A stretch of 31,822 nt of DNA from a virus: the UHGV virus genome UHGV-0094578; one strand, written 5' to 3'. Each line of letters starts with the position of its first letter. Position 1 is the first letter of the stretch. Positions 13,066 to 27,033 of the stretch are shown in pieces. The position numbers were made by a program, and so were the translations under genes. The notes below the pieces were generated by a model that was not told where the DNA came from, did not search any database, and worked only from the letters and a program-made list of their open reading frames with translations.

Positions 13066-13518
13066 ATGTTTAGCGGAAAGCCGCTGGATTATCAGGATGA
13101 ACCGCTGTCCAATAACGGATTCTGGCCAGATCTGAATCTGAAGGATTTTCAAGCGCAGCGGTCACTACCGCCAGATATTGACGCTGACACCATCAGCCAG
13201 GCGTTGCTTGCAGCGGTGGCGGAGGTGAATGCGGAGCTGGAAAACGTGGAGTCCAGTTGGATAGCGAAAGGCTACACGCTGGCGGCAGAGGTACCAGGTG
13301 TAAAAATGGGCGGACTGAACAGCCTGTGCGCCCAGTATATGAAGGCCGTTTTTGCCAGGGCAAAAGCGGATCTGCTGGGGGAGTTCGCCACTATCGGGCG
13401 GCGCGATACTCATCCGGGACAGGAAAGTATGGAAACCCGAGCGGGGTTACTGGCTGAAGCATCGGTGGTGATCCGCCGTATGAAAGGGCTGAAACGGGCA
13501 ACGGTGAAAAAAGTATGA
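13066..13518 (+). CDS. head completion/stabilisation protein (P2 gpL-like)
   Basis: ATG 13066 after GGGGGA; follows the small terminase as in P2. Confidence 0.75.
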   Translation: MFSGKPLDYQDEPLSNNGFWPDLNLKDFQAQRSLPPDIDADTISQALLAAVAEVNAELENVESSWIAKGYTLAAEVPGVKMGGLNSLCAQYMKAVFARAKADLLGEFATIGRRDTHPGQESMETRAGLLAEASVVIRRMKGLKRATVKKV

Positions 13519-14021
13519 GCCAGACGCAGATCCAAAGCCTGACCACATTTTTTAAAGATAACGTCCCGCCCCGTGCGATGCAGTCATTTGACAGTGTGCT
13601 GGATGAGATGAAGTTCATTCCTGCGGCGAAGGATTACGGGCTGGGACAATATCGCCAGGCGGTTATCCGATATGACGCGGTTCTGAGCTGGGAGCGTTTC
13701 CCGTATCGCCTTTGCCCGCCGCCGTTGCTTATGTCCTTACTGGCTGCGTGGCTGGATGATGCTGACAGGGAACTACTGGATGAAGTGGGGCTGAGTGAAG
13801 CTGAACCTGACTGGGATGTGTCGGTGGAGGATGAGGAAGTGGCCACTGTGGTGCTGACTGTTCCGATGGTAGAAGAACTGGTGATCAGGCAGGACGAAAA
13901 AGGGGCTATTCCGTGGCGGGGTGAGCGCTGGTCACTGGTTGAACCTGAAATCTGGACGGCACTGACCGCCAGTATTTACAGCGTGGATGAGGCCGGTGCG
14001 CCGGTGGGGGATAGCGAATGA
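13515..14021 (+). CDS. putative head-tail joining / tail completion protein
   Basis: ATGA coupling to gpL; acidic 168-aa protein; function inferred from position only. Confidence 0.45.
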   Translation: MSQTQIQSLTTFFKDNVPPRAMQSFDSVLDEMKFIPAAKDYGLGQYRQAVIRYDAVLSWERFPYRLCPPPLLMSLLAAWLDDADRELLDEVGLSEAEPDWDVSVEDEEVATVVLTVPMVEELVIRQDEKGAIPWRGERWSLVEPEIWTALTASIYSVDEAGAPVGDSE

Positions 14022-14725
14022 TTGCCGGTGGCGAGCTGAATAAAAAACAGCTGGCCGAATTGCGCAAGGCACTGGCCAGCATGGAGCTGCCGCCGAGAAA
14101 ACGGCAGCGTCTGATCTGGCGTCTGGCCAAATATGGCGTGATTGCTGCGGCAAAACGGCATGTGCGCAATCAGGAATCCCCGGATGGTCAGAAGTGGCCG
14201 GGACGTAAGACAAAACGCAAAGGGAAGATGCTGCGCAACCTGCCAAAGCTGCTGCATATCCGTGAAATGCCAGAAATTCAGGCTGTGCGGATCTATTTAC
14301 AGGGTGGTGGATACCGGAACGGGGAAGCGCCGGTACCAGCCGGAACGGTGGGGTACGCGCAACAAAACGGAATGCGCGTAAAGGTCAGCCGCAGTAATCA
14401 GCCACGGAAGGCAGAGGCCGGGAAAATGGCGACGCCTGCCCAGGCCAAAAAATTACGGGCGCTGGGGTACCGGGTGAAAACCGGTAAGAGATGGAAAAAG
14501 CCCACACTGGGCGAAATCACCAAAACTATGCCATACAGCCAGGCGGGGCTGCTGATTCGAAAACTCAGTAATAAAGCCGTGATAACCAGCTGGACAGTGG
14601 ATCTTCCTGCTCGTGTGTTTCTGGGCATGAATGATGATGAATTTGACAAGGCGCTGGCGCGTCAGCTTCAGGCCATAGGCTTTGGCTGGGACGTTAAGGC
14701 GCAGGATATTAAGGGGAAAGCATGA
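14018..14725 (+). CDS. putative virion morphogenesis / tail completion protein
   Basis: ATGA-coupled 235-aa basic protein; position only. Confidence 0.45.
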   Translation: MIAGGELNKKQLAELRKALASMELPPRKRQRLIWRLAKYGVIAAAKRHVRNQESPDGQKWPGRKTKRKGKMLRNLPKLLHIREMPEIQAVRIYLQGGGYRNGEAPVPAGTVGYAQQNGMRVKVSRSNQPRKAEAGKMATPAQAKKLRALGYRVKTGKRWKKPTLGEITKTMPYSQAGLLIRKLSNKAVITSWTVDLPARVFLGMNDDEFDKALARQLQAIGFGWDVKAQDIKGKA

Positions 14726-24813: not shown

Positions 24814-25330
24814 TGGCGAGGCCATCCAGCTGAAAAACATGCGGGTGACTGTTTCACAGCAATTTCAGGATAAAGATCAGTCCGGCCAGACCAGTGCCAC
24901 AACAAAATCAGAGCAGGGAGCAAAGGGAAAGGAACTGCGGATCAGCGGTGAAATACCTTTTAAACAGCCTGAAGTACTAAAGCGTATTTTTGAGCTGGCC
25001 AGTACTACTGATGCCAGTGGTAATCGTCAGAAATATCGCGTGGTGCATGAAGTTGCCCGTGCTGTTAACTTTCGTGAAGCAACGTTCAGCGGAACGGTGG
25101 ATGCACCCCAGCAGGACGGGAAGATGTCCTGGTTGGTGACATTCACACTGGTGGAACATATCAGCGTGCAGGAAAAGCAAGAGGCCAGGGCAACAGGTAA
25201 GACGACCGCAAAAAAACAGACTGCCGGTAGTGCGGGACAGTCCGGTGGCCAGTCTGCCGGAGAAGATGAAGAAAAACTGACGTGGTTTGAACGCAAGGTA
25301 CTGAAGCCCGTCAATGATGCTTTGGGTTAA
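24785..25330 (+). CDS. hypothetical tail-module protein (181 aa)
   Basis: AAGGGA Shine-Dalgarno; overlaps both neighbours. Confidence 0.5.
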   Translation: MTSIPTLALNGEAIQLKNMRVTVSQQFQDKDQSGQTSATTKSEQGAKGKELRISGEIPFKQPEVLKRIFELASTTDASGNRQKYRVVHEVARAVNFREATFSGTVDAPQQDGKMSWLVTFTLVEHISVQEKQEARATGKTTAKKQTAGSAGQSGGQSAGEDEEKLTWFERKVLKPVNDALG

Positions 25331-27033
25331 TGATGAAACCAGTAAAACGCCTATACCTTTCAACGGATGAAGTTCACCTGGTGGATGCCAGCCTGGTACT
25401 GGAGCTGAACAGCTGCGGCCGGGGCTTCATCACCGCAGAGACAACAACCGATTACACCGGAAAACTGGTGAGGCTGGATGTGGGGTATACCGATCTGCTT
25501 TTGCGCTGGTTTACGGGGTATGTGGAGCGATCGCAGCCCGCTGAAAACGGTTTTCAGCGTCTGTTCATTCGTGAGTTGGCAGGTGTGTTTGAAAGGATGT
25601 GGCCATGTTCGTTTCAACACCCGACTTTGCGTGAAATTGCGGTCTGGTTGGAAGAAAATAGCGGGATCACGGTCAATGTGACTGACGCACAGTACAGCGA
25701 TACCCCTATCCCACATTTTACCCATAACGGTACTGGTTATCAGTTGCTGAACAATCTGGGAAGGGCGTTCAGTATCCAGGATTACATCTGGTACCAGTTG
25801 CCTGATGGTTCGCTTTACGTCGGTGGCGCAGAAAAGTCATTGTTTGCCGGTCGCCCCGTAGAAATCCCGTCAGAGTTCAGCCAGGGAGCTGCTGGCGGTA
25901 ACTCTGTGACATTACCTGTGATCCAGACAATGCGGCCAGGGGTGGAAATGAACGGTGAGCGCGTGACTAAAGTTCACCTGACGAATGACACGATGGCGAT
26001 CACATGGACGCCGAGAAACCGCGCAACGGGTAAACCTTTGCAGAAAACACCGGCGCAACGGCAGATTGAAAGCCATTACCCGGAAATGGCATCCGGGCTT
26101 CATTTGCCAAAGACGGCCAGAGTCGTGGCGCACTCAGAGCCGGTAAAAAGCGGTAACTTTGCCGATCCCTTCCGGCCACGTTATGCCGTGGACGTGCAGC
26201 TGCTTGACGCAGACGGAAACCCGGACAATCAGACGCCTGTTTACTCAGCGGTGCCGTTGCCGGTACCGATGGCCGGGAATGATTCAGGCATGTTTCAGTT
26301 TCCGCCAGAAGGGACGCTGGTTGAGGTTGCATTCACGGGAGGCAGACCGGATAAACCATTTATCAGGCAGACGCTGCCAGATGGCACCAGCCTGCCGGAC
26401 GTTAAACCCGGTGAGCAATTGCAACAGCAGCGGGAAGAAGTTTCCCAGCGGGTGACTCAGGCTGGAGACTGGGTAAGACAGACCGATCAGACCATCAGCG
26501 AAACATCAATGGCGCGAACCGTAAAAGCCGATACGGAACAGCGCGAACTGGTCAGCCGTGAAACCACGGTGAAAGCTACGGATAAAACTACGGTACTGGG
26601 AACCGCCACATTGCTAGCCGGAGCCATCCAGCAGGTCAGCGCCGGTGATTATAGCCAGGCGGTGAAAGGTAACAGGCTGTCCAGTATTGAAGGAAACGAA
26701 GAAACGGACATAACAGGACGGCAGTCTACTAAAGTGGGTGGTGCTGTAGCCGTGGAAGTTGGCGAAAGCCTGACAGAGAAGATTGCCGCATTGCGTAAAT
26801 CAGTGGCCGCTGGAGGTCAGCAGGTCATGGGGGCAACTGTCCATATTGGCAGTGAGAGTATCAACGCCCTAACCATGATGCTGGACACCATTGATTTACT
26901 GGAAGAGCTGGCGCAGCAATGCGCGAGCCATTCGCACCCCTCCGTTGGGACGCCAACCAATGCCGCTGCGTTCACCCAGACAGGGACGAAAGCCGGGCAG
27001 ACCCGGGAAAAATATCAGGGGATTATTGCCTAA
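25330..27033 (+). CDS. putative baseplate hub / central spike protein (gpD/gpV-like, VgrG-like architecture)
   Basis: 567 aa; internal GTLVEVAFTGGRPDKPFI resembles the OB-fold motif of gpV/gp5-type spikes; last gene before the composition shift. Confidence 0.45.
   Translation: MMKPVKRLYLSTDEVHLVDASLVLELNSCGRGFITAETTTDYTGKLVRLDVGYTDLLLRWFTGYVERSQPAENGFQRLFIRELAGVFERMWPCSFQHPTLREIAVWLEENSGITVNVTDAQYSDTPIPHFTHNGTGYQLLNNLGRAFSIQDYIWYQLPDGSLYVGGAEKSLFAGRPVEIPSEFSQGAAGGNSVTLPVIQTMRPGVEMNGERVTKVHLTNDTMAITWTPRNRATGKPLQKTPAQRQIESHYPEMASGLHLPKTARVVAHSEPVKSGNFADPFRPRYAVDVQLLDADGNPDNQTPVYSAVPLPVPMAGNDSGMFQFPPEGTLVEVAFTGGRPDKPFIRQTLPDGTSLPDVKPGEQLQQQREEVSQRVTQAGDWVRQTDQTISETSMARTVKADTEQRELVSRETTVKATDKTTVLGTATLLAGAIQQVSAGDYSQAVKGNRLSSIEGNEETDITGRQSTKVGGAVAVEVGESLTEKIAALRKSVAAGGQQVMGATVHIGSESINALTMMLDTIDLLEELAQQCASHSHPSVGTPTNAAAFTQTGTKAGQTREKYQGIIA

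Follow-up and report, generated by a model that had tools for sequence, protein, structure and literature searches.

The virion gene order of phage genome UHGV-0094578 is that of the HP1 group of Peduoviridae

The viral genome UHGV-0094578, a stretch of 31,822 nucleotides that is referred to as a whole as the window, carries head genes of the P2 family followed, between positions 13515 and 27033, by neck, tail and lysis genes whose order is not that of P2. Does this arrangement record a recent joining of two unrelated phages? In the initial annotation of the genome, it was described as a mosaic virion module in which P2-type head genes meet a non-P2 tail cluster enclosing the lysis cassette, and an exchange of the whole tail-lysis block was suggested. 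Our analysis indicates that the window is very probably a temperate prophage belonging to the family Peduoviridae, in its HP1-like group, which has been described before; the phage would be an ordinary member of it and no new hybrid.

The virion gene order is shared across the HP1 group

Genes were identified from the open reading frame (ORF) map combined with Pfam and PHROG scans, the start codons of the head genes were refined against the RefSeq annotation of Escherichia phage ESSI2_ev015, and identities between phages were obtained with tblastn (Table 1). The virion genes of the window are ordered Q, P / O, N, M, L, R, S / sheath, tube / lysis / frameshift chaperone, tape measure / DUF2590, J, I, fiber, Tfa / orf33-35. 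For each virion gene listed in the initial annotation, the Pfam, PHROG and fold results agree with the identity, order and position that had been assigned, and Pfam matches confirm the location of the lysis cassette (16312-17440) between the tube and chaperone genes. The list after gpL is correct in its order, but the homologs of gpR and gpS (13515-14725) had been left out, and the sheath gene does not directly follow gpL.

The gene orders of HP1 and K139 were read from their GenBank annotations. In HP1, orf15-16 (portal and terminase, leftward) are followed by orf17-20 (O, N, M, L), orf21-24, hol, lys and orf25-35, with hol, lys and orf25 located between orf24 and orf26, in the same slot as the lysis cassette of the window. 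Gene by gene, the window is collinear with orf15-orf35 of HP1 and orf15-orf39 of K139, including the location of hol/lys between the tube and the chaperone/tape-measure genes. This layout was reportedly sequenced with HP1 in 1996 and with K139 in 2002. The same order (L, R, S, sheath, tube, lysis, chaperone, tape measure, DUF2590) is annotated in Aeromonas phage phiO18P, Pseudomonas phage phi3, Salmonella phage SI7, Vibrio phage ValB1MD-2, ESSI-2 and ESSI2_ev015, which together with HP1 and K139 represent eight genera. IMG/VR contains about 560 relatives. In all 80 IMG/VR loci that were fetched with this sheath family, the order is identical as far as each contig extends.

Most virion genes of the window have significant tblastn matches to HP1 genes in the same order, with identities of 51% for the sheath, 59% for the tube, 31% for the tape measure (orf27), 60% for DUF2590, 50% for J, 54% for I, and 28%, 40% and 40% for orf33, orf34 and orf35, respectively; the N-terminal half of the fiber is 43% identical to orf31. 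The sheath and tube are 41% and 48% identical to those of K139. No tblastn match was obtained in HP1 for gpR, the four lysis genes and Tfa, or in K139 for the lysis genes, Tfa and the chaperone. Against the 28-60% identity to HP1, the sheath, tube, chaperone, tape measure, W, J, I and orf33-35 proteins find no match in P2 or 186. As described for members of the HP1 group in Table 2 of Hwang et al. 2023 (PMC10612066), the tail proteins of the window match that group far better than the P2 group.

Other features of the HP1 group are also found in the window, namely the P2-family head block, gpR and gpS right after gpL followed by the DUF2586 sheath and HP1_Orf24 tube, the lysis genes between the tube and the chaperone/tape measure, and a distal order ending in the hub/spike. 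In addition to the collinearity from portal to orf35 or orf39, HP1 (Hpunavirus) and K139 (Longwoodvirus) share with the window an AAAAAAC slip site and a CI/CII-type switch, which is normal for HP1-group phages (PMC2771037). However, neither displays nucleotide-level similarity to the window; the lysis cassette of HP1 contains its own holin and a lysozyme instead of a P2 gpY-type holin and an M15 peptidase, and in K139, phiO18P, phi3 and ValB1MD-2 an extra DksA-like zinc-finger gene follows the tube gene.

Lavigne et al. 2009 (PMC2771037) delimited the 'HP1-like viruses' as phages with P2-like capsid genes whose tail genes lack similarity to P2. In all likelihood, then, the gene order of the window is the inherited layout of the whole HP1 group, and was already known. 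The initial annotation had named two findings that would speak against a special mosaic, the first being that this exact order is the norm for a well-described P2-like subgroup. Since it is the norm for the HP1-like group, in eight genera and all 80 loci, the idea of a special architecture has to be abandoned. As a discovery the locus matters little: the layout was formalised in 2009 (PMC2771037), its evolutionary meaning was discussed in 2023 (PMC10612066), and near-identical genomes are already present in public databases.

Predicted folds of the sheath and tube proteins

The second such finding named in the initial annotation would be a lack of sheath and tube folds in the two proteins encoded at 14722-16301. 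A phmmer search of both against PDB sequences returned no match at an E value of 1 or lower, and hhalign of a seven-sequence DUF2586 alignment against P2/186 gpFI gave a probability of 0.2%, with profiles so shallow (effective sequence number, Neff, of 1.8) that only easy similarity is excluded. The AlphaFold2 model of the tube protein has a predicted local distance difference test (pLDDT) value of 78.7, and its Foldseek matches in the PDB are almost all tube or Hcp proteins (best match 6gkx, E value 3e-4), including the diffocin tube CD1364, the monocin, phiCD508 and phage 812 tubes, Hcp, and the PVC and AFP tubes. Together with the Foldseek matches of the sheath model, these predicted structures confirm the sheath and tube folds proposed in the initial annotation. 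The 375-residue homolog from ESSI-2 had earlier been modeled as a one-domain sheath (Evseev et al. 2022, PMC9230969). A Mu-like tail module was also considered and rejected, the sheath not being specifically related to the two-domain Mu gpL (about 495 residues).

In some GenBank records, DUF2586 homologs are labelled 'topoisomerase', 'topoisomerase IA', 'tail fiber protein' or 'tail fibers protein' (e.g. OM095401.1, KX058879.1, MN563793.1; P0053). In view of the modeled sheath fold, these topoisomerase and tail-fiber labels are wrong. For annotation purposes, DUF2586 corresponds to the contractile sheath and HP1_Orf24/DUF2597 to the tail tube.

Closest relatives of the window

Over the whole window, nucleotide identity to ESSI2_ev015 (Quadragintavirus) is about 92% across 93% of the length, and the region 13515-27033 aligns to it in full at 93%. 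For window positions 1-28200, the one-way intergenomic similarity is 0.86 to ESSI2_ev015 (aligned fraction 0.93, identity 0.92) and 0.61 to ESSI-2, and does not exceed 0.04 for HP1, K139, P2 or 186. The ICTV genus line lies at about 70% nucleotide similarity across the genome. With 0.86, above this line and below the species line of 0.95, the similarity to ESSI2_ev015 places the window in the genus Quadragintavirus as a separate species. We are confident that its genus-level companions are ESSI2_ev015, ESSI2_ev040 and ESSI2_ev129, and that its neighbor is Cronobacter phage ESSI-2 (Seongnamvirus).

The three ESSI2_ev phages have the same genes in the same order genome-wide, with 92-93% nucleotide identity over all of 13515-27033, and the virion proteins of ESSI2_ev015 are mostly 94-99% identical to those of the window. 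ESSI2_ev015 differs in its diverged immunity region (int 57%, CI 70%, Apl/Cox 68%), in the lysis genes (82-90%) and fiber (88%), and in the cargo past the last tail gene, which is not the same. The virion gene order of ESSI-2 is likewise identical, with proteins at 54-88% identity (87% for the M15 endolysin) and a shared frameshift site, but this phage belongs to another genus, and the C-terminus of its fiber and its Tfa are unlike those of the window. A 21-kb part of the window (4722-25846) is 100% identical to the IMG/VR contig UViG_3300029735_000267. Among 5,426 complete E. coli genomes, 25 carry related prophages that cover at least 80% of the first 25 kb of the window, with a highest identity of 95.7%. 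The ESSI2_ev phages were isolated from infant stool viromes as temperate coliphages that form plaques (Mathieu et al. 2020, PMC6969025), and ESSI-2 is included in the HP1 group of Hwang et al. 2023 (PMC10612066).

The boundary with P2 lies after gpS

As stated in the initial annotation, the head genes are of the P2 family and in P2 order, but all of them are nearer to HP1/K139 than to P2/186. Identities to HP1, K139, P2 and 186 are 49%, 45%, 33% and 33% for the portal, 51%, 51%, 42% and 41% for the large terminase, and 34%, 48%, 27% and 29% for the capsid, the range for P2 head proteins being 27-42%. Compared to HP1, the head proteins are 34-51% and the tail proteins 28-60% identical, and compared to ESSI-2, 54-88% and 56-81%. 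Head and tail genes thus appear to diverge in step against the same relatives (HP1, K139, ESSI-2 and ESSI2_ev015), and it is very likely that no recent junction lies at gpL.

The gpR, gpS and gpJ proteins of the window fall into the PHROGs of their P2 counterparts (phrog_65, phrog_26 and phrog_6), and the sharing of neck and tail families is limited to these three. The sheath, tube, chaperone, W-position and I-position proteins belong to PHROGs other than those of their P2 counterparts (phrog_907 and phrog_1182 for sheath and tube, versus phrog_23 and phrog_55 in P2), and the orf33/34/35-type genes to phrog_1677, phrog_1398 and phrog_2258 'baseplate protein'. Because gpR and gpS are in P2 PHROGs, the P2-homologous block most probably extends from the portal through gpS, and the deeply divergent block would begin at the sheath gene (14722), not at 13515. 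The term 'non-P2 tail cluster' is too strong in view of R, S and J, the gpY-like holin, the LysC-like Rz1 and the C-terminus of Tfa, which resembles gpG.

The likeness to P2 and 186 (Peduovirus and Eganvirus) comprises the head block Q, P / O, N, M, L, the gpR, gpS and gpJ families, the gpY-type holin, LysB/LysC-style overlapped spanins, an E/E'-style frameshift, an Ogr-type activator, and 186-like int, CI, CII and A. In P2, however, the lysis genes lie between L/X and R, and V-W-J-I-H-G come ahead of FI-FII-E-T-U-D, so that sheath and tube follow the fiber genes, as the initial annotation had pointed out; the late genes form three rightward operons, and the sheath, tube, chaperone, W, I, U and D are of other families. 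A P2/186-type architecture was ruled out for the window by this comparison of gene order with the P2/186 annotations and by the lack of a gpFI/gpFII-family sheath or tube.

For the group as a whole, the HP1/P2 split is far deeper for tail than for head proteins, the splits in the sheath and gpJ timetrees being far deeper than that in the portal timetree, and an ancient replacement of the tail module at the HP1/P2 split has already been proposed (Hwang et al. 2023, PMC10612066). Any such replacement would, with high probability, have taken place when the HP1 group arose or earlier, and not in the phage of the window. The 'modular exchange' of the initial annotation is thus partly supported, as a hypothesis on an ancient tail event that is already in print for the whole group; a recent junction and a foreign origin of the lysis cassette are not supported. 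The practical value for annotation is that the module boundary with P2 is set after gpS, and that recent gene exchange shows in the lysis slot, not in the tail block.

The gpS-type protein itself is 235 residues long versus 150 in P2, and its central extra part is rich in lysine and arginine. The Phage_tail_S match spans just residues 14-75 of the protein and is under the curated cut-off.

A fixed lysis slot with exchanged alleles

The holin shares 54% identity with gpY of P2 and 57% with 186 orf24, and tblastn gave no match for it in HP1 or K139. An M15 peptidase forms the endolysin, whereas HP1 and P2 carry lysozymes. Because Rz1 runs past the stop codon of Rz, the spanin pair is overlapped and not embedded, in the style of P2 LysB/LysC and in agreement with the initial annotation. 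Median identities to the window among the 80 relatives are 55% for the holin and 63% for Rz, compared to 88% for the tube and 90% for the endolysin (86-90% for sheath, tube and endolysin). With an HP1-type position, a P2/186-type holin and alleles that vary independently of the flanking genes, the lysis cassette is not part of a foreign block; its slot is fixed, while the alleles within it are exchanged.

The M15 endolysin (16601-16942) is 81% identical to that of SI7 (locus L089), versus 52% for the tube, 43% for the holin and 38% for Rz. This difference suggests horizontal spread of, or strong constraint on, this single lysis gene across genera.

Exchange among close relatives

In 18 of the 80 relatives (e.g. 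L025, L035 and L046), the proteins from portal to gpS are 43-74% identical to those of the window and the proteins from sheath to spike 84-98%, with gpR and gpS co-varying with the head genes and not with the tail genes. Other relatives display the opposite ranking. In L023, for instance, the head proteins are about 85% identical, the tape measure 60% and the orf33 homolog about 70%, and most loci with 85% identical heads have tape measures at about 60% and orf33 homologs at about 70%. Along the alignment with L025, nucleotide identity is about 65-70% up to a step near 14.5 kb, where it rises to about 80%; further steps, to 85-89% near 20 kb and to 91-98% from 23.5 kb, follow. The divergent head lineage of such loci was compared with the SI7 (Irrigatiovirus) type, which was rejected because the identity is 49-59%, and would thus constitute a third lineage.

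Recent exchange has, in our assessment, very probably taken place only among HP1-group relatives, and involves holin/spanin alleles, the tape measure, fiber/Tfa, the distal baseplate, and head-neck versus tail lineages. There is about an even chance that in the enterobacterial ESSI-2-like clade the head-plus-neck genes (portal to gpS) and the tail genes (sheath onward) still reassort as separate modules. As the identity step in the relatives falls at the gpS/sheath boundary, where the P2 homology also ends, this junction may have persisted over a long time as a boundary for recombination, with the ancient HP1/P2 tail replacement occurring there as well. The mosaicism seen is ordinary modular exchange within one clade.

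Within the head genes, the scaffold/protease gpO (10376-11179) is only 76% identical to that of ESSI2_ev015, versus 98% for the adjoining terminase and capsid. The same dip is seen in several relatives, and is apparently a local recombination patch within the head module.

A model of late expression and tail assembly

The Ogr/Delta-type zinc-finger protein encoded at 7061-7384 is 57% identical to K139 orf13 and 41% identical to an HP1 region downstream of the portal gene. We propose that this activator would switch on divergent late promoters in the 125-bp intergenic region between the terminase and scaffold genes (P/O). Within this region lies the 7-bp inverted repeat GTTCGGT-N11-ACCGAAC, to which the Ogr-type activator may bind. 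From O to orf35, the rightward unit spans about 16.7 kb, with a largest non-coding gap of about 62 nt and overlaps of 1-29 nt at most junctions. Given these small gaps and overlaps, the head, neck, sheath/tube, lysis, chaperone/tape-measure and baseplate genes would probably be co-transcribed on one long late transcript and translationally coupled; for comparison, each of the three rightward late operons of P2 has its own activator site. The embedded holin, M15 endolysin and Rz/Rz1 genes would then be expressed late together with the tail genes, and the timing of lysis would be set by the holin and not by separate transcription.

The slip site A_AAA_AAC is located at 17675-17681, directly ahead of the stop codon of the short chaperone, and the -1 frame is open for 64 further codons to a TGA at 17873-17875 that overlaps the tape-measure ATG, the long form lying within 17427-17875. 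AAAAAAC also stands right before the stop codon in HP1, K139, ESSI-2 and ESSI2_ev015. The frameshift noted in the initial annotation is real, with a canonical site kept across the HP1 group. The slip would yield a fixed ratio of short to long chaperone for tape-measure and tube assembly, and the one-domain sheath would polymerise around the HP1-type tube to form a small contractile tail.

Alternative origins of the virion module

In tblastn, the head genes find matches in P2 and 186 but the genes from sheath to spike do not, and the early genes are closest to 186 (int 62%, CI 45%, CII 45%, A 46%), as expected of a recent hybrid in which a phage of P2/186 type would have exchanged all of its tail and lysis genes, from a junction immediately behind gpL, for those of an unrelated myovirus. 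Such a hybrid is nevertheless highly improbable. The greater similarity of the head genes to HP1/K139, their co-divergence with the tail genes against ESSI-2, ESSI2_ev015, HP1 and K139, and the P2-family proteins gpR and gpS right after gpL all argue against a recent junction of a P2 head and a foreign tail at gpL. In addition, the L/R/S/sheath junctions are 4-nt overlaps, with the same adjacency in the eight genera and 80 loci, the holin within the supposedly foreign block is of the P2 gpY type, and a CI/CII switch is normal in the HP1 group (PMC2771037). Still less credible is a defective tail remnant or tailocin-like element lying beside a head module in place of a single functional virion module: all genes for head, neck, tail, lysis, replication and immunity are intact and contiguous, no inactivating mutations were seen in the head genes, and the near-identical ESSI2_ev015/040/129 (93%) were isolated as plaque-forming temperate coliphages (PMC6969025).

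The tail could instead be vertical throughout, with no module ever replaced, the HP1-type tail being a fast-diverged orthologue of the P2 tail whose order was changed by operon rearrangement and relocation of the lysis genes in one lineage. The PHROGs of R, S and J shared with P2, the marginal Tail_P2_I match, the fiber N-terminal domain, Tfa, the gpV-type OB domain and the E/E'-like -1 frameshift chaperone are in line with this scenario. We consider it unlikely in view of the separate PHROGs of the sheath, tube, chaperone and W- and I-position proteins, the negative hhalign comparison of the sheath families (with shallow profiles), and the published timetrees, in which the tail split is far deeper than the portal split (PMC10612066). 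Some points do weigh against our own account of an inherited HP1-group module expressed from one late operon. The HP1-type tail may have been acquired or may simply have diverged very deeply. The confidence of the sheath model is moderate (pLDDT 64), though its Foldseek match list is unambiguous. Quadragintavirus itself is absent from Table 2 of Hwang et al. 2023 (PMC10612066), where only the neighbor Seongnamvirus is named. Finally, the single-operon model and the activator site derive from gene spacing and one inverted repeat, and consensus searches for promoters and terminators across 10000-28400 gave chance-level counts (15 promoter-like sites versus 19.8 expected, 28 terminator-like sites versus 18 +/- 5.7) and no usable operon boundaries.

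Gene content, early region and prophage ends

Table 1. Features of the window, with the evidence for each assignment
Feature	Position	Strand	Evidence and remarks
Integrase	50-1090	minus	
CI repressor	1092-1715	minus	
Small Apl/Cox-position ORF, then CII, then Dam-type methylase	after CI		ORF map
P2 gpA-type replicase	4734-6755		
Ogr/Delta zinc-finger late-gene activator	7061-7384	minus	Pfam Ogr_Delta, E 9.7e-20
Portal, gpQ-like	7381-8442	minus	phrog_68
Large terminase, gpP-like	8439-10214	minus	terminase PHROG; leftward late operon with portal
Scaffold/protease gpO	10376-11179	plus	Pfam Phage_GPO
Capsid gpN	11242-12264	plus	Pfam Phage_cap_P2
Small terminase gpM	12268-12969	plus	Pfam Phage_term_smal
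Head completion gpL	13015-13518	plus	Pfam Phage_GPL, E 1.7e-38
Tail terminator, gpR-like	13515-14021	plus	Pfam P2_Phage_GpR, E 4.6e-22; phrog_65
Tail completion/Neck1, gpS-like	14018-14725	plus	Phage_tail_S weak, E 1e-4; phrog_26
Contractile tail sheath, HP1 orf23/DUF2586 type, predicted one-domain, 375 residues	14722-15849	plus	DUF2586, E 5e-133; phrog_907 'tail sheath'
Tail tube, HP1 orf24 type, 151 residues	15846-16301	plus	Phage_HP1_Orf24, E 2.5e-63; phrog_1182
Holin	16312-16614	plus	Phage_holin_3_2, E 4e-39; phrog_175
M15 peptidase endolysin	16568/16601-16942	plus	Peptidase_M15_4, E 1e-10
i-spanin Rz	16942-17280	plus	phrog_1152 Rz-like spanin
o-spanin Rz1	17141-17440	plus	LysC family; LSAC lipobox in translation
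Tail assembly chaperone, short form	17427-17684	plus	Phage_TAC_10, E 5e-34
Tape measure	17872-19839	plus	PhageMin_Tail, E 1.7e-22; phrog_28
DUF2590, position of gpW	19836-20165	plus	Pfam DUF2590
gpJ-like baseplate wedge	20162-21346	plus	Baseplate_J; phrog_6
gpI-like baseplate wedge	21339-21926	plus	Tail_P2_I marginal, E 5.7e-4
Tail fiber	21937-23511	plus	Pfam for fiber/Tfa pair: Phage_tail_fib, Collar, Caudo_TAP
Fiber assembly chaperone Tfa	23511-24098	plus	C-terminus 41% to P2 gpG
HP1 orf33-like	24088-24813	plus	
HP1_ORF34 baseplate complex protein	24785-25330	plus	HP1_ORF34, E 5.8e-54
orf35-like hub/spike, 567 residues	25330-27033	plus	weak Phage_base_V (gpV OB domain) and weak Gp5_C (C-terminal repeats)
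Hexapeptide acetyltransferase	27088-27684	minus	
199-residue ORF	28357-28956		
ParA/AAA_31 ATPase	30140-31171		overlaps next gene by 14 nt
RiboL-PSP-HEPN protein	31158-31772		

The early region had been called 186-like in the initial annotation, which is accurate for int, CI, CII and A; for Apl the assignment follows from position alone, the ORF in question having no tblastn match to 186 Apl. A perfect CTGT-N8-ACAG palindrome, resembling a LexA box, is located at 1771-1786 in the CI/Apl-position switch region, at the start of the 1776-2030 ORF, and may serve as an operator, either for the SOS response or for CI/Apl. Upstream of 6881-7087, a small Tum-like ORF with 32% identity to 186 Tum across 55% of its length, no LexA-box-like site was found. 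Neither a tRNA gene nor an att-like direct repeat was found in the window. As the left end of the window is 49 nt beyond int, attL probably lies outside it.

At the right end, the region 27088-31822 is low in GC (35-41% versus about 52% for the phage) and is not shared by related prophages. The ParA/AAA_31 and RiboL-PSP-HEPN genes may form a two-gene defence or abortive-infection cargo in a hotspot between cos and attP, or belong to flanking island DNA; PADLOC returned one weak P-loop match only for the right-end cargo genes. A non-coding block of about 200 bp (27946-28141) is about 91% conserved in all related E. coli prophages, while the surrounding DNA is not. In E. coli CM2010-0578/1, the homologous block lies between the last tail genes and an attR-side cargo gene, with the host mntR next to it. 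HP1-group phages keep cos near attP and not beside the portal gene (PMC2771037), and the block may hold the cos site.

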